DNA from: Gemmatimonadota bacterium
GTDB taxonomy: Bacteria > Gemmatimonadota > Gemmatimonadetes > Gemmatimonadales > GWC2-71-9
Assembly: GCA_029863245.1 (NCBI GenBank)
Contig: JAOTVV010000002.1
Span: 192,242 to 256,241, forward strand
Direction: 5' to 3'
DNA: 64,000 nucleotides
Shown: positions 3,550 through 62,839 of the stretch, one piece after another
Position numbering within the stretch: the stretch's first letter is position 1
Layout of the letters: each line of letters opens with the position of its first letter
Notes under the pieces: generated by a model
What the model was told of the DNA's origin: nothing
What the model saw: the letters and a program-made list of their open reading frames with translations, nothing else
Database searches by the model: none
Made by a program: the position numbers and the translations under genes

Positions 3550-3796
3550 GTGGCGGAGAGGGTTTCTTGTGGAGTGCAGGACGGTGCCGGCGGGCGTCCC
3601 CCCCCCGTTACGGGCCCTGCTGAGCGGTCACGCCGGCCGGCACGGCGGCGCTCTTCAGCCATAGCTTCATGGGGGGCCGAGTCCTCGCTTCAATCGCTCT
3701 CGAGCTCTACCTCGAGGCCGTGCGCCGTTCGGTTCGGGCACCAACGCGATCTACGGCATCAGGCGACTGGCCGGGTCGACGTCGCTGTGGCGACCC

Positions 3797-4813
3797 TCAG
3801 TGGAGAATCCTCCGCGCCGCCACCCAGCGGTCGCGCCACCATCGCGCCTCGGGGTCACTCGCGTCCAGGCCGGAGAGCCGGACCCCCCCCGACGAGCTAT
3901 GGATGAACTGGCCGTCGCCGACATAGAGGCCCACATGGCTGACCCCGCCACCGCCCTCACTGAACGCGAGAATGTCTCCTAGGTTCAGTGCCGCCACCCT
4001 GCGCTCCACCTGGACCCCCTGGCGGGCCTGATCGCGGCTCATTCGCGGTAGGACGATGCCGTGCTCCCCATAGGCCCACTGGATCAGGCCAGAGCAGTCG
4101 TACCCAGTGGCATCGCTCCCTCCCCAGCGATACGGAGACCCCATCGCCTCGAGCGCCGTGCGGACCACGCTGGCCCCGACTCGAGCGACGTCGTCCGGCA
4201 CGCTTCCGTCCTCGACCGGGCGCACCTCCGGAACCGGACGCGGGGACGGGGGTGGGGGCATCGGCACCCCCCCGCTGCTGCGGGGCGTCCGGGATCGGCG
4301 CAGGCGTCCACCCACGACGACGCGACCCGCCAACGAGAACCCCCGTCTATCCAGAGGATCCAGTCTCCAAAACCCGCTCACCCCGGAGTCCTCGACACGG
4401 TACCGGCCCTCGAGGCCGATGGCGAAGAACGGGAGGATGGGGAACGTGTAGCCAATGCCCGCGCTCCACGACGCATCCGCATTCCCGTCGTCGTGATCGA
4501 TGCCCAGGCCGACACTGCCTAGCCCGTACCATCCGCGGCTCCGCTGCCCCACCGTGAGCACCAGCTCCGCACCGGTTTGCGTGCGGTCAATCGGGGCACC
4601 GCCGTCGTCGAGATAGAACCCGCCGAGACCGAATCCGAGAGGCCCGAACAGAGACCGATCGTAGGCAAACCCGTAGTGGACGCTCGTCTGGTCATGCCAC
4701 CAGGCACCGTAGGAAAGGCTCACGCTTCTTCCCTGCGCGACGAGGGAGGAAGGCCACAGGAGGGCGAGCACGGGTGTCAGCGCGAGGAGGCCGACGAGGC
4801 GGTAGCTGGGCAC
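3797..4813 (-). CDS. outer-membrane beta-barrel / NlpC-P60 peptidoglycan endopeptidase fusion protein
   Basis: Signal peptide, then about 170 aa of alternating aromatic/Gly strands (OmpA/OmpW-like barrel), then a Pro-rich linker. The C-terminal part is NlpC/P60 (YRWGGSDATGYDCSGL ... HVGLYVGDGQFIHS). Confidence 0.8.
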   Translation of the reverse strand: MPSYRLVGLLALTPVLALLWPSSLVAQGRSVSLSYGAWWHDQTSVHYGFAYDRSLFGPLGFGLGGFYLDDGGAPIDRTQTGAELVLTVGQRSRGWYGLGSVGLGIDHDDGNADASWSAGIGYTFPILPFFAIGLEGRYRVEDSGVSGFWRLDPLDRRGFSLAGRVVVGGRLRRSRTPRSSGGVPMPPPPSPRPVPEVRPVEDGSVPDDVARVGASVVRTALEAMGSPYRWGGSDATGYDCSGLIQWAYGEHGIVLPRMSRDQARQGVQVERRVAALNLGDILAFSEGGGGVSHVGLYVGDGQFIHSSSGGVRLSGLDASDPEARWWRDRWVAARRILH

Positions 4814-35007: not shown

Positions 35008-35212
35008 GATGGCACCTCCGTTTCGTCCTGGGCTTCCAGACGGCGCACACCTTCCGTCTGGACGCAGGGGCCCGACCACGTCACGCCGCATACCACGTAC
35101 CCGCGAGCCGATTCCTCTAACTTATTGTAATATAACATGTTAGCGGACGTGATTCCGGGTTCACCCCTGGGGCGGCCGGGACCACCTGGGTCGTTCCGCA
35201 CCAGAGGCGTGG

Positions 35213-36601
35213 CTAGCCGTCCTGGCCCCCCATCGAGAGCAGTCGGCGAAGCCGCTTGCGCGAGATCCCGAGGCGGCGAGCCGCCTCGCTCCGGTTCCCG
35301 TCGCAGTACTTCAGGGTGGCGTCTGCTACCGCCGACTCGATGGCGTCCAGGGTGGCAGGAAACGGGAACCGGCCCTCGCCCACGACCACCGGTTTTCGCT
35401 CCGGGATCAGCTCATCGATCGCGAGCGTGCCCTCGGGCGACAATAGCAGTGCCCGCTCGACGGCGTTGCGAAGCTCGCGGACGTTGCCGGGCCACCCGTG
35501 CTCCCGCAGCGCCCGTCTCGCGACCTCGTCCAACGGGGGTTCCGGCAGCTCGTGCTGGAGGGCGGCCCGGCGAAGCAGTTCGTTGGCGATCAGAACCACG
35601 TCGTCCCCCCGCTCACGCAGTGGCGGAAGGCGCAGCACCACCACGCTCAGACGGAAATAGAGGTCTTCACGGAATTCCCCGGTGCGGACACGTTCTTCCA
35701 GCCGTTCATTGGTGGCGGCGAGGATCCGAACATTGGCGAAGCGCCACTTCGTGCCCCCAACCCGCCGCACCTGCTTGTCTTCGAAAACGCGCAGCAACTT
35801 GGCCTGTGCATCCACAGGGAGCGTTCCGATCTCGTCGAGGAACAGCGTTCCCCCCTCGGCGAGCTCGAACAACCCAGGCTTGGCCGCGTGTGCGTCGGTG
35901 AACGCCCCGCGCTCGTGCCCGAACAGCTCCGACTCCACGAGCCGCTCCGGAAGCGCGGCGCAGTTGACCGCCACGAACGGTGCCCGCCGGCGGGGCCCTC
36001 CCTCGTGGATGGCGCGCGCGAGCAGTTCCTTCCCTGTCCCCGTGTCACCTACGATGAGGGCGGTCGCCTCGCCGTGCGGTAGCAGTCGCCCCGCTCGGGT
36101 CAGCGTCGCCTTGAGGGCTGTGCTCTCCCCGACGATGGTGCTGAACGCCTCAGGCTTCACGTCGCCAACGCCGTTGTCCCGCTGGCGGCCAGCGCGATGC
36201 CGAGCTACCGCCTCGTCGGTGGCGTTGTGCAGGACTTCCAGATCCTCTGGGAGTGCGAAGTAGTCGGTGGCCCCGCGCCGGACCGTCGCCGCGGCTATCC
36301 GGCGGCCCGGGTCGGCGCCGACGGCAAGCACGGGAATTGGCGGCGGGACGGCATGGCGATCGAGCCAATCGAGCGCGGCCATTTCGTCCCCGCCTGCCGC
36401 GAGTACGACTGCGGCAACCTCGGGCGGAACAAGCCCGACATCGTCGGGACCCACCACCCGCAAGTCCACGCCCAGATCCCGGCTCAGCTGCCCCCAGAAC
36501 TCCCCGAACGAAGTCGACAGCTGGACAACGAGCAGCGTGACCGACCCAACACGCGGAGTCAGGGGCTCGTACTGAACACGGTCTGGGGCGGATCGCCCCA
36601 T
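35213..36601 (-). CDS. sigma54-dependent transcriptional activator (bEBP) with degenerate receiver domain
   Basis: Only the last 462 aa of track ORF 35213..37627 are used, from the ATG at 36601. AAA+ core GDTGTGKELLA, GAFTDA loop, LFLDEIG. C-terminal Fis-type HTH (NRSEAARRLGISRKRLRRLL). The N-terminal receiver-like fold lacks the acidic pocket, Asp and Lys. Confidence 0.9.
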   Translation of the reverse strand: MGRSAPDRVQYEPLTPRVGSVTLLVVQLSTSFGEFWGQLSRDLGVDLRVVGPDDVGLVPPEVAAVVLAAGGDEMAALDWLDRHAVPPPIPVLAVGADPGRRIAAATVRRGATDYFALPEDLEVLHNATDEAVARHRAGRQRDNGVGDVKPEAFSTIVGESTALKATLTRAGRLLPHGEATALIVGDTGTGKELLARAIHEGGPRRRAPFVAVNCAALPERLVESELFGHERGAFTDAHAAKPGLFELAEGGTLFLDEIGTLPVDAQAKLLRVFEDKQVRRVGGTKWRFANVRILAATNERLEERVRTGEFREDLYFRLSVVVLRLPPLRERGDDVVLIANELLRRAALQHELPEPPLDEVARRALREHGWPGNVRELRNAVERALLLSPEGTLAIDELIPERKPVVVGEGRFPFPATLDAIESAVADATLKYCDGNRSEAARRLGISRKRLRRLLSMGGQDG

Positions 36602-36817
36602 TTGCGTGCGATCACTCACGCACGGCTCCAGGTTGGTGCCATTTGAACCAAGGAGTACGAAACGTACCACCTGACGTCGGCCCGTCAATACTCCGTAACG
36701 CTCTGCCGTAAAAATGTTTACACCGACGAATGTCAGGGGTCTCATGTTTGCGACATTACGGGTCGCAGCGCAGAAGCCACGAAGTGACGCCCAATCCCAT
36801 CGGTCCCGGAGGACTCC

Positions 36818-38140
36818 ATGGCGCTCGCCGTTTCGCCAGGCGCGAAATTGTCGACCCTGGCGAAAGCCGCCGGCCGCAGCAACGGCGCCATGCTGGCCCG
36901 ACGGCGAGTGTATTGGGAAACGGGCCCGATCGAAGAGCGCCCGGGAGACGCGTTCGGTGACACCGCGCGGGCCATCGCCGAGGCCGTATCGGCCAAGGAT
37001 GGGTACACACGCGCGCACTCGCGTCGCGTTGCCCGCTATGCCGCGGCATTGGCCAGCGAGCTGGGAGTGGGGAGTCGCAGCGTCAGGGAGATCGGGTTCT
37101 GTGGGCTCCTGCACGACGTGGGAAAGATCGGCATCCCAGACACTGTGCTGTGCAAGATGGGACCCTTGTGCGATCAGGAGCTGCGCCGAATCAGGCGACA
37201 CCCCGTCATTGGCGAGCGCATCCTCGGGCCGCTGCTGCGCACCCATCCGCGGATCCTCGCGGCGGTTCGCTGGCACCATGAACGGTTTGACGGCAGTGGC
37301 TTTCCCGACGGCCTTGGCGGCGAGGAGATTCCACTCGAGGCGCGGATCGTGGCGGTCGCCGACGCATACGACGCCATGACGTCCGAACGGCCGTACCGCC
37401 CTGCGCTCCCCGTGCGGCGCGCCGTACTCGAGCTGCGTCGCTGCAGCGGCAGTCAGTTCGACCCGACGTGCGTGGCGGCGTTTTTGAGACTGCTCGAGAG
37501 GATTCGTCGTACCGGGTGTCAGGCACGGCGACGGGCTGCCCGTCGCTGGCGGGTCGTTGCCCGGCGCGGAGAACGGCCGGGGGCACGTCGACCGGCGGCA
37601 GGCACCACTGTACGCCGACACTCCCACCGGGTACGCGTCGCCGGCAAGGCAACCTCTCCGGAAATCGGCTCATCCTATCGACCGCCGGCAGCATCTGAGA
37701 GAAAGGTGCGCCCCCGAGCGCCTCCCCCGGGACGGAGGAATCAGCACGACCCTTCCATCAGCCAAGGGGACCGCCATGCGGGCCGTGTATGCGTGCGGGT
37801 GCATTTTCTCCGGCACCGATTGCGAGACCGGCGCCGTGGAAATCACCATGCAGTTCTGTCCGATCCACGAGGCGCACCAGACCTGCATCGCCCAGCGCCC
37901 AGACCCGGCACCGCACGTCCGTCGGTGCTGGTCGCCTACCGGAGGGCCCGGAATCAGTCCTCAACTCGCAGCGGCGGCGTCCGAAGCCCGAAGGTCGCCG
38001 GACCTCCAGCCAACGTCGTTCTGAGTTCAGACGACCTCTTAGATGTACTGGCTTATCGTATTATACAGCAAGGGTTTACAAAGACCACCTCAAGTATTGA
38101 CTGGGCTCCGGAAGCTTGGCCGATGCCAGGGGTAGCCTGA
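36818..38140 (+). CDS. HD-GYP domain protein (cyclic-di-GMP phosphodiesterase family) with an unconserved ~200-aa Arg/Pro-rich tail
   Basis: ATG at 36818 with GGAGGA upstream. The domain spans about 36940-37500 (YTRAHSRRV...LLHDVGKIGIPD...HHERFDGSGFPDGL...DAMTSERPYR). After about 37500 the frame looks non-coding (GC3 about 61%), but the first in-frame stop is at 38140. Confidence 0.75.
   Translation: MALAVSPGAKLSTLAKAAGRSNGAMLARRRVYWETGPIEERPGDAFGDTARAIAEAVSAKDGYTRAHSRRVARYAAALASELGVGSRSVREIGFCGLLHDVGKIGIPDTVLCKMGPLCDQELRRIRRHPVIGERILGPLLRTHPRILAAVRWHHERFDGSGFPDGLGGEEIPLEARIVAVADAYDAMTSERPYRPALPVRRAVLELRRCSGSQFDPTCVAAFLRLLERIRRTGCQARRRAARRWRVVARRGERPGARRPAAGTTVRRHSHRVRVAGKATSPEIGSSYRPPAASERKVRPRAPPPGRRNQHDPSISQGDRHAGRVCVRVHFLRHRLRDRRRGNHHAVLSDPRGAPDLHRPAPRPGTARPSVLVAYRRARNQSSTRSGGVRSPKVAGPPANVVLSSDDLLDVLAYRIIQQGFTKTTSSIDWAPEAWPMPGVA
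37776..38024 (+). CDS. candidate Cys/His-rich small protein (alternative frame inside the HD-GYP tail)
   Basis: ATG at 37776 preceded by AAGGGGA. MRAVYACGCIFSGTDCETGAVEITMQFCPIHEAHQTCIAQ...; the first 40 codons have GC3 about 87%. Same frame as track ORF 37557..38024. Confidence 0.35.
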   Translation: MRAVYACGCIFSGTDCETGAVEITMQFCPIHEAHQTCIAQRPDPAPHVRRCWSPTGGPGISPQLAAAASEARRSPDLQPTSF

Positions 38141-38237: not shown

Positions 38238-38321
38238 TGCCCGAGGACGGAGTCGAACCGTCACCCCGTTGCCGGGACGGGATTTTGAGTCCCGCGCGTC
38301 TACCAGTTCCACCACTCGGGC
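38238..38321 (-). tRNA. tRNA-Leu (anticodon CAA)
   Basis: Folded by hand. Acceptor GCCCGAG/CTCGGGC, 3-bp D stem, anticodon stem CGGGA/TCCCG with loop CUCAAAA, long variable arm (CCCG/CGGG), T arm GACGG-TTCGACT-CCGTC, discriminator A. No encoded CCA. Confidence 0.95.
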
Positions 38322-57615: not shown

Positions 57616-58620
57616 CTAGTTCCCCGCCGGTTCCCCACCCTTGGTCTCACCCTTGGCGATACTGTTCCGCATCCCGGTGTCGCTCTCGATATTCTTGTAC
57701 CGCACGAAGTCCATCACGCCCAGCTGTCCCTTGCGGAACGCCTCGGCGATGGCGAGCGGCACTTGGGCCTCGGCCTCGACAACGCGGGCCCGCATCTCCT
57801 GCACCTTGGCCGTCATTTCCTGCTCCAGCGCGACGGCCATCGCGCGGCGCTCCTCCGCCTTGGCCTGGGCGATCCGCTTGTCGGCTTCCGCCTGGTCGGT
57901 CTGCAGCTCGGCGCCGATGTTCTTGCCCACGTCCACGTCGGCGATGTCGATGGACAGGATCTCGAATGCCGTACCGCTGTCGAGTCCCTTCGCCAACACG
58001 GTCTTCGAGATGTTGTCGGGATTCTCCAGCACCGCCTTGTGGGAGGTCGACGAGCCGATGGTCGAGACGATACCCTCACCGACACGCGCGAGGATGGTCT
58101 CCTCCCCTGCGCCACCGACCAGCCGCTCGATGTTGGCCCGCACGGTGACCCGCGCCAATGCGATGAGCTGAATGCCGTCCTTGGCCATCGCGGCGACCCG
58201 CGGGGTCTGAATCACCTTCGGCGTCACTGACACCTGGACCGCTTCGAACACATCCCGTCCCGCGAGATCGATGGCGGCCGCGCGCTGGAACCCCAGGTCG
58301 ATCCCGGCCTTGTCGGCCGAGATGAGCGCTTTGACGACCCGATCCACGTTGCCGCCGGCGAGGTAGTGCGCCTCGAGCGCGTCCACCTTGAGCACCAATC
58401 CCGCCATGGTGGCAGCGATGAGGGGCCGGACGACCGCCGCGGGATTCACCTTTCGGAGGCGCATACCCACCAGCGTGCCCAGTCCGATCCGCACGGTCGC
58501 CGCGGCCGCCTCGATCCACAGCCGGACGGGAATGAAATTGAGGAGGAGCATCAACAGCATCGCGCCGACGATGACGCTGATGATCACGATCCAAGAACCG
58601 AGCTGTGCAATTTCTGGCAT
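57616..58620 (-). CDS. floA: flotillin-like protein FloA (SPFH domain, UPF0365/YqfA)
   Basis: 334 aa: N-terminal membrane hairpin, ...[35 protein letters not shown]...V.PKVI. Confidence 0.9.
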
Positions 58621-58637: not shown

Positions 58638-59966
58638 TTACGCGCCGGCGCCGCCGTCCAGCGGCTCGACGACGTGGCGATAGCTCTCGGTCCGAATGAT
58701 GCGCACCGGCGTGCCCTTGGACACGAAGCCGACGTCAGAGACCACGTCGAGCCGCTCGGCCCCCACCCTGATGGTACCGGCCGGTCGCAGATCGGTGATG
58801 GCGACACCCTGGTGTCCCACGAGGTCCTCACGGAGGGAGCCGGCAATGTCGCCGGCCGCCCTCGACGTCGCCGCCTGGAGGAAGATCCCCCGGGTCCCGC
58901 GACGGGCCGGCAGCTGCCGCACGAGGAGATACACAGCAGCCACGATGATGAGCGCAGCGGCAAACAGCACCCCGCTGGCCCGCGTCACGTCGGCCCAGGT
59001 CGGCAGGTTCCCGATGAGGGCGAGGAACACCGACGACCCGATGCAGAGCATGGCGATCACGCCGGCAATCCCGAATCCCGGCACGACGAACACCTCGATG
59101 CCCAGGGCGATCAGTCCGGCGCCGAGCAGGATCAACTCCTCCCAGCCGGCGAGCCCGACGATCAGATGGCTGCCGAAAAACGCGGCGAGCGAAGCCACGC
59201 CCACCGCGCCGGCGATGCCGAACGACGGCGTCTTGATCTCGATCAAGATGCCCAACGTGCCGATAGAGAGCAGCAGCGGCGCCACGAACGGATTGGACAG
59301 GAAGCGCACCAGCTGCTCGGCCCAGTTGATCCCGACGGTGACCACCTCAGCTCCCGCGAGCCCGAGCCGATCCAGCAGTCCGTCGAGGTTCTCCACCTCG
59401 GCAGCAGCCAACCCCAGATCGACCGCCTCCAGTGCCGTGAGCGTGAGCAGTTTCCCTTCGGCGATAACGCCCGGGATGGCCACTTCTTCGTCCACCATCG
59501 CTTCCGCGATCCGAGGATCGAGTCCACGGCGCTCGGCGAGCGCACGCATCTCACTCCGCATCGCGCTCACAATCTTCTCCGGTGCCTTCTCGCCCGCCCC
59601 TGTGACGGGTGTCGCCGCCCCGATGGACGACGCCGGGACCATGTAGATGGAATCGGTGGCGAGCGCGATGATCGCCCCCGCGCTCCACGCATGCGTGTTC
59701 ACCAACGTGTAGATGGGAACCGTGCTCTCCGTTGCGGACTTGACGATCTGCTGCGCCGCGTCGATCCGGCCGCCGGGCGTATCGATGTCGAGAATGACCG
59801 CCGCCGCCCCTGCTTCGGCCGCCTCCGCAATGCCGCGAGCCACGTACGGGGCCAGCCCCAACTCGATCACGCCCGTCACCGGTATTCGGTACACAACGCC
59901 CTGCGCACCGGCCACGGCCGGAGCGGCGACGAGCAACGCGAGCATTGCGATAGACCTGCGGTTCAC
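58638..59966 (-). CDS. nfeD: NfeD family membrane-bound ClpP-class serine protease
   Basis: ORF 58638..59996. Start placed at the GTG at 59966 (GGGGGA upstream). ILDIDTPGGRIDAA...AWSAGAIIALA, 4-5 TM, and a C-terminal OB-fold (G.A.TDLRP.G...V.G...DVVS.G.F...G..V....). Confidence 0.88.
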   Translation of the reverse strand: MNRRSIAMLALLVAAPAVAGAQGVVYRIPVTGVIELGLAPYVARGIAEAAEAGAAAVILDIDTPGGRIDAAQQIVKSATESTVPIYTLVNTHAWSAGAIIALATDSIYMVPASSIGAATPVTGAGEKAPEKIVSAMRSEMRALAERRGLDPRIAEAMVDEEVAIPGVIAEGKLLTLTALEAVDLGLAAAEVENLDGLLDRLGLAGAEVVTVGINWAEQLVRFLSNPFVAPLLLSIGTLGILIEIKTPSFGIAGAVGVASLAAFFGSHLIVGLAGWEELILLGAGLIALGIEVFVVPGFGIAGVIAMLCIGSSVFLALIGNLPTWADVTRASGVLFAAALIIVAAVYLLVRQLPARRGTRGIFLQAATSRAAGDIAGSLREDLVGHQGVAITDLRPAGTIRVGAERLDVVSDVGFVSKGTPVRIIRTESYRHVVEPLDGGAGA

Positions 59967-60094
59967 GATGTCCCCCAGGGTGGGTCCACTCTTCAAGTTA
60001 GGAGACAGCGCAGGGTTGCGGTAGCTCGGCGTGATCGGGATGGCTGGTCGAGCGAGCTGATCGTGTGACGTCGACCGGAGGAGCGCAGTATTGA

Positions 60095-60200
60095 AAGGTA
60101 GAAAAGACGCTGCGGCTGCTGAGCCCGGGCTTGCGTGGTCCCGCTCGTCCCCTCCCGACGAGGTTCCTTGTCTGGCGACAAGACGCTCAGCAGACCGCAG
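60095..60200 (-). other. candidate structured RNA element (three-way junction + U-tract) in the nfeD leader
   Basis: Minus strand: P1 CTGCGGtCTGCTGAGC (60200-60185) pairs with GCTCAGCAGCCGCAG (60124-60110). It encloses hairpins CTTGTC-gcca-GACAAG and CTCGTC-N7-GACGAG, and is followed by CGTCTTTTCTACCTTTC. Confidence 0.3.
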
Positions 60201-60219
60201 TGTTTGCTACCCCTCCAAG

Positions 60220-60235
60220 TGAAAGTTGCGTGCCA
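60220..60235 (-). promoter_or_regulatory. sigma54-like promoter (-24/-12) upstream of nfeD-floA
   Basis: Minus strand reads TGGCACG-caac-TTTCA versus the consensus TGGCACG-N4-TTGCW: 11/12 match with exact spacing. The single mismatch is the normally conserved -13 G. Confidence 0.35.
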
Positions 60236-60349
60236 CCGTTTCAGCAGACCCAAGTTGTTATTTGACAACGACTTGAGTTGACATGACGATCCGCCACACG
60301 CCGCATTTTGCCCTGTGTCTGGTACGTCGAGTCTCCGGAAGAGGACAGA

Positions 60350-61666
60350 TCAATGCACACCCTCGCCCGTGCCGGGTCTCGGGCCGCGAAGTGCCTGACC
60401 GCTCCCGCAGCGATCGCACCCGGTACAGCCGCGCACCGTCTCGCCGAGGTATCTGAGGAGCACGCGACGACGGCACCCGCGGGTGGTGAGGTACCGGCGC
60501 ATGGCGGCAAGGCCGAGCCGCCTCGCCTCGCCCAGGCGCCTCGCGGCCGGCTCGCCGACGTCGAGGCCCGCCAGCTTCGATGCAAGGGTGAGGTCACCGT
60601 TCGTCCACAGCACCTCGCATCGGGACGGTAACCCGTCTCGGCCGGCGCGGCCCGCTTCCTGGAAATACGACTCTGGCCGAGGCGGCACGCCGAGGTGGAG
60701 CACCAGTCGCACGTCCGGCTTGTCGATCCCCATGCCGAACGCGCTCGTCGCCACCATGACCCGGCAGCGCCCATCCAGGAACCGCGCGAGCAGCTCGCGT
60801 CGAGCGCGGCCTGGGAGGCCGGCGTGATAGGGAAGCGCCGAAAGCCCCCATTGTCGCAGCACGGTGGCCACGCCGTCGGTCCGGTCGTGCGTGGGGACGT
60901 ACACGATGGCCGTCCCGTTCACGTGGACGAGCAGCGACGCCGCCTCCCGCACCCGGTCCCGCTCGCGCCGGAACCGGCGTGCTGCCAGGAACAGATTCGG
61001 GCGATCGTGGGAACGGACCACGCGCACCGGCGTGCGGAGTCCGAGCACCCGTAGGATGTCTTGCCGGGTCGCGGGCGTCGCCGTTCCGGTCACGGCGATG
61101 GTGCGCGGTTCCCCGAGGAGGCGACGATACCGACCGATGGCCCGGTAGTGCGGCCTGAAGTCGTGGCCCCACTCGCTGATGCAGTGCGCCTCGTCCACCG
61201 CCAGGAGCGCGATCCGGAGCTGCGCCACGTCCGCGGACAGGGACGGCAGGCGCTCCGGCGCCACGTACAGGAGCCGCACTCTTCCCTCGATGACGGCGTC
61301 CCTCACGGCGTGCCGGCGTCGCGGCGTTTGCGTGCTGCTCAGGTAGGCAGCGGGTACGTCTCGCTGCCGCAACGCGCGCACTTGATCCTGCATGAGGGAG
61401 ATCAGCGGCGACACTACCAGGGTGAGCCCCGGCAAGAGCAGGCCAGGCACCTGATAACAGATCGACTTCCCGCCCCCGGTAGGAAGCACCGCCAGGCAAT
61501 CTCGGCCCTGGAGCGCGGCGAGCACCGCCTTCCGCTGGTAGTAGCGAAAATCGGCGTAGCCCCAATAGCGGCGGAGCACCTCGTGGGCGTCGGCGAGGGT
61601 CGGGATGCTCATCGCCGCCGCGGGACGCACAGGGAGCGCGGAATGCAGCGGAGGAGGAGCGGACAC
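60350..61666 (-). CDS. recQ: RecQ-family ATP-dependent DNA helicase (short form: helicase core + Zn-binding subdomain, no RQC-WH/HRDC)
   Basis: 438 aa: F..YQ......L.GRD.L.V.PTGGGKS.CYQ.P, DEAHCISEWGHDFRP.Y, ATATP, and C-terminal CRR..LL.YLGE....C.GCD.C. An alternative ATG lies at 61612. Confidence 0.88.
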   Translation of the reverse strand: MSAPPPLHSALPVRPAAAMSIPTLADAHEVLRRYWGYADFRYYQRKAVLAALQGRDCLAVLPTGGGKSICYQVPGLLLPGLTLVVSPLISLMQDQVRALRQRDVPAAYLSSTQTPRRRHAVRDAVIEGRVRLLYVAPERLPSLSADVAQLRIALLAVDEAHCISEWGHDFRPHYRAIGRYRRLLGEPRTIAVTGTATPATRQDILRVLGLRTPVRVVRSHDRPNLFLAARRFRRERDRVREAASLLVHVNGTAIVYVPTHDRTDGVATVLRQWGLSALPYHAGLPGRARRELLARFLDGRCRVMVATSAFGMGIDKPDVRLVLHLGVPPRPESYFQEAGRAGRDGLPSRCEVLWTNGDLTLASKLAGLDVGEPAARRLGEARRLGLAAMRRYLTTRGCRRRVLLRYLGETVRGCTGCDRCGSGQALRGPRPGTGEGVH

Positions 61667-61880
61667 GCAAGATCAGCATGATCGGAGGTTGTGGAGGAGA
61701 ATGGGGCGCCACCCCGGCGGAACGAGACTCTAAATCACTACGTGATTGGGCGAAAATGCGCCTCAGCCGTCGTCCGAGACTCCGCGCGCGCGTGTGACGG
61801 TGTAAGGAAACACGTCCTGCGCGTCGTCGCCGAGATTCGGGAAGAACAGATACCGTTCCAGCCGGCCCTTGGAGCGTGCC

Positions 61881-62216
61881 GCACGCCGCCAGGAGCGACG
61901 CGAACCTGACATGAAGCGCGCCACTCGACGCCTCGAGCGAGCCATTCGAAGCTTGAATCGCGCCATTCCGAGCTTCGAGTGAGGCGCTCGAACCCTGGCG
62001 CCCGTCGTCTGGAAGCTCGGATGAACCGTTCCAAGCTTCGATCGGTCCGTTCGAAGTCCCGGACCGCGCTTCGGAAGTTTCGCGTGAGCCGGACCACGCT
62101 TCGAGCGACGCGGTCGACGCTTGAAATGAGGCAGGCGAAGCTTGGAGCGGGTCGTTCGAAGCGTGAAATGCGGCATTCCAAGCTTCGAGTGAGGCGCTCG
62201 AAACGGGCCCTCGGGG
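61881..62216. repeat. degenerate 21-nt tandem repeat array (~14-16 units) with palindromic AAGCTT-centred cores
   Basis: Minus-strand unit consensus is GSC TCR CTC GAA GCT TSG AAY. AAGCTT occurs at 61949, 62033, 62138 and 62180 (spacings 84, 105 and 42, all multiples of 21). The 28-mer at 61965-61992 recurs at 62175-62202 with 1 mismatch, 210 nt away. Confidence 0.75.
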
Positions 62217-62368
62217 GCCGAACCTCAGCGCCGGCTGGGACTTACGGCCGCGGCTACTCATGAATGGCCGCCGCGAGGAGGAAGCGCGCCCACACGCGCC
62301 CGCAAGAGTCGCTGCACCGCCGTAATCCGAGTCTTCTGTCAGGTTTGACACTGAGCGCAAAGGAGAAG

Positions 62369-62397
62369 CCCCGAACGCCGCGTGACGCTCGGGGCTG
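62369..62397. repeat. 29-bp direct repeat, copy 1 (hairpin)
   Basis: CCCCGAACGCCGCGTGACGCTCGGGGCTG, identical to 62840-62868. Forms the stem AGCCCCGA/TCGGGGCT. On the minus strand it is followed by CTTCTCCTTTG. Confidence 0.85.
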
Positions 62398-62406
62398 CTG
62401 AAGGTC

Positions 62407-62736
62407 GTGTTGAAGGATTGGCTGCTACCCAGCGCACCCAAAGTCAGCCATCACCGCTTGTGCAAGATCGATGAGTTGTGGTGGTGGTGCGAGGAGTGGG
62501 TTCGACCGTTTCAGGAGTACACGCGCATTGCGTTGTTCAACGTGACGGGATTACAGCCGCACAAATCGGAGCAGTGGCGCGTCCTACGCTGTCAGGATTG
62601 CGGGCACCTGGAGTGGTTCGTGGTGGGATTGTTGGAGAATAAGCGGCCCCGTCACACCGAGGCGGGGCCGCTGCGTCGGGGGCTCTCCTTATGGATGCTA
62701 TTATGGAGCCTCGTCCTGACGCACTGGCCAAGGTAG
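62407..62736 (+). CDS. hypothetical Trp/Cys-rich small protein with hydrophobic tail (low-GC cassette)
   Basis: 109 aa, GTG/TTG start. GC3 about 80% although the local GC is about 56%. CKIDELWWWCEEW...LRCQDCGHLEWF, with C-terminal LSLWMLLWSLVLTHW. An internal 9-bp-stem hairpin lies at 62641-62672. Confidence 0.4.
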   Translation: MLKDWLLPSAPKVSHHRLCKIDELWWWCEEWVRPFQEYTRIALFNVTGLQPHKSEQWRVLRCQDCGHLEWFVVGLLENKRPRHTEAGPLRRGLSLWMLLWSLVLTHWPR

Positions 62737-62839
62737 GACATACCGTCAGCCGGTGCAAGCGGGACCAGAACGCTCTGTCTATCGCGGCGGTGCTCGCTAC
62801 CCCGTGAACAACAACAACCCGGCGCGGGGCACGAGAAAA

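Follow-up and report, generated by a model that had tools for sequence, protein, structure and literature searches.

Small RNAs (sRNAs) that depend on sigma-54 are known mainly from Proteobacteria. In Gemmatimonadota, to our knowledge, no small RNA has been described, and our literature searches found none. The Qrr RNAs of Vibrio (LuxO/sigma-54) and the CrcZ and CrcY RNAs of Pseudomonas (CbrB/sigma-54) require bacterial enhancer-binding proteins (bEBPs) and are sometimes encoded in tandem; Qrr acts in trans by base pairing and CrcZ by protein sequestration. The bacterial Y RNAs YrlA and YrlB belong to the rsr-yrlBA-rtcBA operon controlled by RtcR and sigma-54, and a long stem of paired ends that closes a multi-helix domain, as they have, is typical of protein-bound RNAs. 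In Enterobacteriaceae, GlmY and GlmZ are sigma-54-dependent sRNAs activated by GlrR, with IHF sites (PMC3045617, PMC3162934). Here we describe the gap between a recQ-like gene and nfeD in a 64,000-nt stretch of bacterial DNA (the window, by which we mean that whole stretch), and consider it probable that 255 bp of its minus strand (60347-60093) form a self-contained, enhancer-dependent sigma-54 small-RNA gene with a predicted RNA of ~115 nt.

A conserved four-way-junction RNA upstream of nfeD

Read on the minus strand, the recQ-nfeD gap contains a promoter motif, then a stable fold (60200-60110) and then a U-rich tail; gene callers placed zero genes within it. The RNA has the following parts:

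60110..60200, minus strand: four-way-junction RNA, seen by folding, consensus structure, covariation and covariance model (CM) scores
60200-60185 with 60124-60110, minus strand: closing helix P1, 16 bp, GC-rich, with U60194 (or C60193) bulged
60182-60167, minus strand: hairpin 1 (H1), loop GCCA
60162-60144, minus strand: hairpin 2 (H2), loop GGGAGGG
60143-60126, minus strand: hairpin 3 (H3), CGGG/CCCG
60162-60135, minus strand: invariant 28-nt core CUCGUCGGGAGGGGACGAGCGGGACCAC
60093..60109, minus strand: U-rich tail CGUCUUUUCUACCUUUC, which with P1 forms an intrinsic-terminator-like 3′ end

The element folds at −65.2 kcal/mol (z = −5.4 relative to shuffled sequences) and the predicted transcript at −53.3 kcal/mol (z = −3.5), with the minimum free energy (MFE) and centroid folds in agreement. 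The original prediction, made from the sequence of the window, had placed here a three-way junction of a closing helix and two hairpins, followed by a U-tract. Its two hairpins, with the GCCA loop and the 7-nt GGGAGGG loop, are found at their coordinates on the minus strand, as is the U-tract behind the helix (60109-60093). The RNA is indeed a structured junction, but a four-way and not a three-way one, the CGGG/CCCG hairpin at 60143-60126 having been missed; the closing helix keeps its coordinates, but the bulged base is the U or C given above and not the proposed A.

In a 29-row alignment, which was fitted to the model and whose pairing figures are to be read accordingly, standard pairs occupy 97.9% of cells, versus 36-43% when the 3′ partners are slid. 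Double-sided changes occur in 17 pairs (P1, 13/16; H1, 3/6; H2, 1/6), and 0 of 500 shuffles reach the observed values; covariation, with P1 in the lead, supports the fold that had been proposed. Complete copies score 79-128 bits with the CM. Both strands fold. Because G·U cells outnumber A·C cells (34 versus 11), because CM scores in the sense direction (~80-128 bits) exceed those in the antisense direction (19-40 bits) three- to fivefold, and because the promoter and the U-tail lie there, the nfeD strand is the RNA strand.

P1 is followed directly by CGUCUUUUCU, which gives the GC-rich stem and U-tract of an intrinsic terminator. Of the 26 distinct copies that we collected (see below), about 20 have a U-rich tail; it is weak or absent in L085, L089, L090, L096, L097b and L103 (L numbers denote fetched loci). 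A simple consensus promoter/terminator scan did not call P1 with its tail; it found no sigma-70 site and called only hairpin 2, on the wrong strand.

Searches of RNA families agree with the earlier statement that no known family is recognised here: Rfam 15, run on the whole window at the gathering threshold, gave no match on the element, and at E ≤ 10 the sole match on 59950-60400 was a chance one to snoTBR17 on the opposite strand. Rfam returned nothing relevant on the orphan and tandem loci described below. ARAGORN reported 0 tRNA/tmRNA genes in 59900-60400, so that a tRNA-like or YrlA-type element is detected by neither program. Literature searches on the core sequence and on combinations of nfeD, RNA motif and sigma-54 found no earlier description. 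Two other identities were set aside from the sequences: a G-quadruplex (the fourth G-tract is not conserved) and a CsrA sponge (there is a single GGA hairpin). The only gathering-threshold Rfam match in the window is a tRNA at 38238-38321 on the minus strand.

Distribution in Gemmatimonadota and copies away from nfeD

The best NfeD match is on the contig of a Gemmatimonadota metagenome-assembled genome (96% identity), and because of this homology the window is placed in that phylum. The element lies upstream of nfeD in 7 of 80 Gemmatimonadota-type nfeD loci taken from GTDB species representatives. Two covariance models, the second of them broader, found no divergent versions upstream of nfeD in the remaining 73 loci, nor in other parts of the window, in which the element is single-copy. 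A metagenome scan with TCGGGAGGGGANNNNCGGGACCAC returned 26 contigs, all carrying the full element and one carrying two tandem copies; after removal of duplicates, genomes and metagenomes of Gemmatimonadota together yield 26 distinct copies. The metagenome copies were chosen by a pattern that fixes the H2 loop and the start of H3, and the invariance of the core is unbiased only in the seven copies found through NfeD homology.

Three distinct copies (L087, which equals L088, L096 and L103) are orphans, in that the short contigs available for them carry no nfeD. They are found adjacent to an IS4-type transposase or between an HNH-like open reading frame (ORF) and a convergent argH. Their −24 GG is missing, with TAGTGA in place of TGGCAC. 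Common to them are TGCAACC-N17-CATCTA, located ~105 nt ahead of P1, and a ~60-nt 5′ extension in which GGCGAAAC and CCGUAGUG occur. The tandem copies of L097 are at 3597-3713 and 3853-3968, the second without a clear promoter or U-tail. The orphan and tandem copies show that use of the RNA core is tied neither to nfeD nor to sigma-54.

A long purine-/pyrimidine-rich inverted repeat lies just 3′ of the orphan RNA in L087 (2290-2370), beside the IS4-type transposase, and gave many spurious microRNA-model matches. The assemblies behind L092 and L094 are related: hairpin 3 of L094 is interrupted by foreign sequence and a run of N, and in L092 the nfeD homology begins only 48 nt past the RNA. Both oddities are probably assembly artefacts, and the two loci were left out of spacing-dependent counts.

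A putative sigma-54-type promoter region that travels with the RNA

The DNA ahead of P1 carries a series of blocks, listed here from the RNA outward:

60201..60209, minus strand: predicted transcription start at ~60209 (±2) and short A-rich 5′ tail UAGCAAACA
60220..60235, minus strand: sigma-54-type −24/−12 element TGGCACGcaacTTTCA, GG at 60234-60233 and −12 C at 60221
60250..60276, minus strand: A/T-rich box TCAAGT, then TAA-CAAC-TTG, IHF-like (core CAA-N4-TTR) by position and consensus
60309..60325, minus strand: upstream dyad 2, GTACC...GGGCA, candidate second enhancer half-site pair, ~−100 from the predicted start
60330..60347, minus strand: upstream dyad 1, TGTCC-N8-AGACT, candidate enhancer (bEBP) site, ~−120 to −138 from the predicted start

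The motif TGGCACGCAACTTTCA at 60235-60220 is the sole match in the window with at most one mismatch to TGGCACG-N4-TTGCW, in line with the original description of it as the best such match. A match in a single sequence proves little, because matches with at most two mismatches occur in the window at chance level (9 versus 8.85 expected). It is conservation, and not the single sequence, that shows the element as a whole to exceed chance. TGG-N8-TT-N-C is invariant, with fixed spacing, in 23 nfeD-linked loci among the 26 distinct copies, 18-32 nt ahead of P1. The sigma-54-type motif proposed on the nfeD strand is thus found in register in 23 related loci. Most of these have TGGCAC-N5-TT(C/T)C and one clade has TGGTGY-N5-TTGC; this clade joins a weaker −24 element to a consensus −12 element, and the two halves appear to compensate each other in strength. 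The motif is also specific. Across all 106 fetched loci (~0.7 Mb) TGGCAY-N5-TTYC has 27 matches, of which 23, some of them from duplicate contigs, lie directly upstream of the RNA. It is absent from the upstream 500 nt (in the form TGGCAY-N5-TT-N-C) in all 70 RNA-less nfeD loci scanned (of 73), and because these loci have no TGGCAY-form motif the promoter belongs to the RNA and not to nfeD. The predicted start near 60209 takes 12 nt as the usual distance from the −12 C; the 5′ tail that would follow it is A-rich in most relatives.

The upstream blocks recur in the 23-locus alignment. Dyad 1 reads TGTCC-N8-GrACA in relatives; TGTCC is kept in at least 80% of the 23 loci (with two CGTCC and one TGTCT), lies ~112 nt upstream of TGG in most and farther in a few, and is retained as a dyad at loci without an upstream recQ. 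Dyad 2 reads GTGnC-N~10-GGTCA. An A/T-rich TAAGT box precedes the IHF-like block, YAR-N4-TTR, which 18 of the 23 loci have; in relatives the distance from its TTAC down to TGG is 14-17 nt, usually 15. Both kinds of block, the dyads at ~−100 to −138 and YAR-N4-TTR at a near-fixed distance, are recognised by likeness to known sites, and their order is by analogy that of the textbook enhancer-dependent promoter, as established for the NtrC/NifA type. Elsewhere in the window an enhancer-like dyad occurs at chance level only, and a rigid-spacing version of the dyad pattern gave zero matches over the fetched loci.

RNAalifold predicts zero consensus pairs in the 85 nt upstream of P1, and this segment is therefore conserved as DNA, not RNA. 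For the same reason, RNA helices from a TAAGT...ACTTA dyad or from TGGCAC were dropped. A sigma-A-type promoter at the TAAGT box was rejected, as no −35-like hexamer is conserved 17 nt upstream. A second TGGCAC-N5-TTTC in the window, TGGCACCTCCGTTTC at 35010, is a chance match that forms the complement of a Shine-Dalgarno/start region.

The nfeD-floA operon and its own promoter-like box

The genes and elements around the RNA, and the distant bEBP gene, are as follows:

57616..58620, minus strand: floA, flotillin-like FloA (PF12127, E = 2.7e-157)
58638..59966, minus strand: nfeD, with NfeD1b_N, NfeD_membrane and NfeD domains
59994..60023, minus strand: nfeD promoter-like element TACCGC-N17-TAACTTG, past the terminator, function putative
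60350..61666, minus strand: RecQ-like helicase (Pfam match), upstream neighbour outside the module, stop at 60350
35213..36601, minus strand: bEBP (Sigma54_activat 1.9e-63, AAA_lid_14, HTH_8)

The likely nfeD start is GTG at 59966, behind the Shine-Dalgarno sequence GGGGGA (gene callers picked ATG 59945). It sits ~127 nt past the tail, close to the ~130 nt originally estimated. All 23 sigma-54-type copies are directly upstream of nfeD-floA in the same orientation, with at least five kinds of upstream neighbour (recQ; recQ with an inserted gene; a ChaC-like cluster; a thioesterase-like gene; a 779-aa membrane protein) and a spacer from RNA to nfeD of 73 to >770 nt. Because the position before nfeD-floA is constant and about six copies have no U-rich tail, some coupling of RNA and nfeD is plausible, most simply by read-through of the terminator.

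A CTAMCTT box precedes the nfeD start by 30-45 nt in 15 of 19 RNA-linked loci, with variants in the other four. It reads CTA(A/C)CTT(G), with TTTCGC or TACCGC 17 nt upstream in several loci. The same box is found in the RNA-less loci L003, L005 and L008, with TTTCGC (L003/L005) or TTACGC (L008) 17 nt upstream. L010 and L022 have a related box, ATACCTTT and GTACCTTT respectively (TACCTTT), 7-8 nt from the ATG, a placement that suggests that the mRNA is leaderless and the box its −10-type element. In the window the box motif is over-represented (5 versus 1.8 expected). From these sequences, nfeD-floA is likely to have a housekeeping-type promoter of its own. The box recalls the −7 element of Bacteroidetes, TAnnTTTG, which would suggest that housekeeping promoters of Gemmatimonadota are of the Bacteroidetes type.

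Two further repeats occur in this upstream DNA. The word (C)CGCAA(Y) recurs 40-55 nt past the terminator in many loci and at ~90 nt in the window (60014-60021), and its separation from the nfeD promoter box is not constant. The RNA-less loci L003, L005, L008 and L012 have, ~150-250 nt ahead of nfeD, two CCGGTCAA/GGTCAA repeats ~25 nt apart and then a conserved TATATACTTTGAC. GGTCA also appears in the enhancer-like block of RNA-carrying loci, and the repeats may be a shared regulator site for nfeD-floA.

The bEBP gene noted at 35213-36601 in the original prediction is borne out by its Sigma54_activat, AAA_lid and HTH_8 domains; the sigma-54 contact loop reads GAFTDA, not GAFTGA. From its sequence, the gene points to use of sigma-54 by the organism, and its tie to the promoter of the RNA is putative. 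A mechanically listed ORF of 804 codons (35213-37627, minus strand) contains it. The bEBP is probably the 463-codon version, because the longer ORF overlaps an HD_5 gene on the opposite strand (36818-38140, plus strand). Between the bEBP stop and the gene that comes next on the minus strand, an A/T-rich dyad, CTAAC-N17-GTTAG (35117-35143), resembles in form the TAAGT...ACTTA box that precedes the sigma-54 motif. That next gene, to whose ribosome-binding region the TGGCACCTCCGTTTC match is complementary, probably starts at ATG 35008 behind GGAGGTG.

Proposed mechanism and alternatives

We propose that a bEBP would bind the two dyads at ~−100 to −140, that an IHF-like protein would bend the DNA at CAA-N4-TTR, and that sigma-54 RNA polymerase bound at TGGCAC-N5-TTTC would initiate near 60209. 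The transcript would fold into the four-way junction, and P1 with the U-rich tail would end transcription near 60095 to give an RNA of ~115 nt, with the closing helix doubling as terminator. The mature RNA would most probably act in trans through the invariant core, that is, the Shine-Dalgarno-like GGGAGGG loop of H2 and GGGACCAC of H3; the core might bind a protein, or the loop might pair with C/U-rich targets (CCUCC-type for GGGAGGG). By analogy, the paired 5′ and 3′ ends that close a junction with an invariant core make the RNA resemble protein-bound RNAs more closely than seed-pairing sRNAs. On the other hand, most copies have the A-rich 5′ tail and the U-tail, and these would be in keeping with an Hfq-type sRNA too. 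As a secondary effect, incomplete termination could add a sigma-54-dependent input to nfeD-floA, which would otherwise run from its own promoter. Of the two options in the original prediction, we favour the sigma-54-dependent small RNA, on the grounds that the promoter travels with the RNA, that nfeD has its own box and that there are copies away from nfeD. The terminator/antiterminator leader comes out weaker, as inspection reveals no competing fold and P1 is too stable for a ligand-gated P1.

Several observations count against the small-RNA gene. At −13, where G is near-universal, 19 of 23 loci, the window included, have T or C, and only four have G (TTGC). The enhancer and IHF sites are assigned by position and a loose consensus. 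The terminator is atypical, since P1 encloses a multi-branch junction of three hairpins and not a loop of 3-8 nt, and where the U-tract is lacking the RNA would be a 5′ leader. In the metagenome copies the invariance of H2 and H3 is forced by the search pattern. The bEBP gene is not adjacent to the RNA locus, and rpoN is absent from the genes of the window, although no search aimed at rpoN was made. Complements of the H2 and H3 loop 7-mers and of the H1 loop 6-mers in nfeD-floA include no site conserved for non-coding reasons; whole-molecule duplex folding of the RNA against the nfeD-floA mRNA was uninformative.

The alternative with most in its favour, which we nonetheless hold to be unlikely, is a cis-acting leader: the sigma-54 promoter would serve nfeD-floA, and the RNA would be an attenuator in the 5′ untranslated region with conditional read-through, riboswitch-like or protein-mediated. 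That all 23 sigma-54-type copies are co-oriented and immediately upstream of nfeD-floA, whatever lies upstream of them, speaks for it, as do L085, L089 and L090, whose transcripts must run on downstream without a U-tract, and the invariant core could be a pocket for a ligand or protein. Against it, a conserved promoter-like box stands between terminator and start codon, also in RNA-less relatives; those relatives have no sigma-54 motif, the spacer to nfeD is highly variable, and the orphan copies have no nearby nfeD on their available contigs. The MFE and centroid folds give a single structure where a riboswitch or attenuator would have alternatives, no antiterminator pairing is seen by inspection (no dedicated search was run), and a 16-bp GC-rich P1 is unlikely to be ligand-dependent. 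We regard as distinctly less probable a new class of structured regulatory RNA, different from ordinary base-pairing sRNAs, in which the invariant junction core binds a specific protein, the ribosomal anti-Shine-Dalgarno or a small ligand, and the closing helix is a signal-sensitive terminator. If it were true, a sigma-54 enhancer signal would be wired into the NfeD/flotillin membrane-microdomain operon.

It is also doubtful, a shade more so, that the RNA is real while TGGCAC-N5-TTTC is not its promoter. Transcription would then start farther upstream from a housekeeping- or extracytoplasmic function (ECF)-type promoter, for example near GGAAC...GGTCA or TAAGT, and TGGCAC-N5-TTTC would be a site for another protein or part of a longer 5′ domain. 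GGAAC-N16-GGTCA does resemble an ECF-type promoter, the −13 position does deviate from the sigma-54 consensus, and the orphans keep the RNA after swapping TGGCAC for TAGTGA, with TGCAACC-N17-CATCTA farther upstream. These points are countered by a GG and a C that never vary and stand at the canonical sigma-54 distance on either side of a variable spacer, 18-32 nt before P1, by −24 and −12 halves that appear to be mutually compensating between clades, by the lack of a conserved −35 hexamer upstream of TAAGT, and by 85 nt of upstream sequence without the consensus structure expected of a transcribed conserved 5′ domain. Far less credible is a function at the DNA level or in termination only (recQ being followed by a bidirectional terminator or an insulator, or the DNA forming a cruciform or a repeat, and an RNA product having no role). 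Folding is good on both strands, the A-rich 5′ and U-rich 3′ flanks have a terminator-like symmetry, and recQ has no other obvious terminator; however, a terminator needs neither a 28-nt invariant core nor conserved inner hairpins, the G·U over A·C asymmetry points to one RNA strand, and the element comes with a conserved promoter architecture of its own, occurs once in the window and is kept where the upstream gene is divergent or different. A small protein gene can practically be dismissed. A 91-codon ORF (59993-60268, minus strand) in the mechanical list overlaps the element, and the nfeD frame is open through it in the window and in L001, but indels of 1-4 nt between close relatives (P1 bulge, H3 loop) break any frame, substitutions in the helices are compensatory and not synonymous, gene callers call nothing in the gap, and the frame is closed in most other loci.

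Significance and other features of the window

The small-RNA gene that we favour would make this locus a complete, comparatively supported module of activator sites, bending site, −24/−12 promoter, structured RNA and terminator, the roles of the sites being putative. It suggests how the membrane organisers NfeD and FloA might connect to enhancer-dependent signalling. The natural −12 variants, TTCC/TTTC paired with TGGCAC and TTGC paired with TGGTGY, are useful for the study of sigma-54 promoter recognition beyond Proteobacteria, and the nfeD box hints at Bacteroidetes-like housekeeping promoters in Gemmatimonadota.

Two features lie near the RecQ-like gene, outside the module. At 62630-62760 on the minus strand, TTGCAC-N17-TACCTTG has, ~50 nt further on, a strong hairpin, GCGGCCCCG...CGGGGCCGC, and UUAUUCUCC (fold z = −3.2); it may represent another short transcript, or else a leader ahead of the recQ region. 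A 615-codon ORF (60594-62441, minus strand) that overlaps the RecQ-like gene in a different frame matches no Pfam family. It is very likely spurious, like many long antisense ORFs of this high-GC window.

Comparison with known systems

The proposed gene is of a kind already known, the sigma-54-dependent sRNAs exemplified by GlmY/GlmZ, Qrr and CrcZ, and its RNA is without detectable relation to them or to Rfam families. It differs from GlmY/GlmZ in having no sequence or structure similarity and no Rfam match, in belonging to another phylum and in the absence of a RapZ or glmS context; GlmY and GlmZ consist of three consecutive stem-loops, whereas the RNA here is a junction closed by its terminator helix. 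What it shares with them, here all predicted, is a stand-alone sRNA gene with a −24/−12 promoter, upstream activator sites, an IHF-type site between them and an intrinsic terminator, and the sigma-54 link to the cell envelope also fits (PMC3045617, PMC3162934).

The attenuator and riboswitch leaders that terminate transcription likewise have an invariant core and a helix with U-tract upstream of a co-oriented operon. Unlike in such leaders, the terminator stem here is the 16-bp closing helix, no antiterminator is seen, the operon has its own box and the element also occurs without the operon. Qrr and CrcZ are linear hairpin arrays with repeated single-stranded motifs, in contrast to the single invariant core in a four-way junction found here, which has no family match; the two copies in L097 are reminiscent of their tandem arrangement. 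YrlA and YrlB are set apart by their T-loop and tRNA-like sequence, of which the element has none (ARAGORN and Rfam were blank), and by rsr or rtcB, neither of which is nearby. They nevertheless resemble the present RNA in their sigma-54 context, which is predicted for the latter, and in 5′ and 3′ ends that pair in a long stem closing a multi-helix domain.

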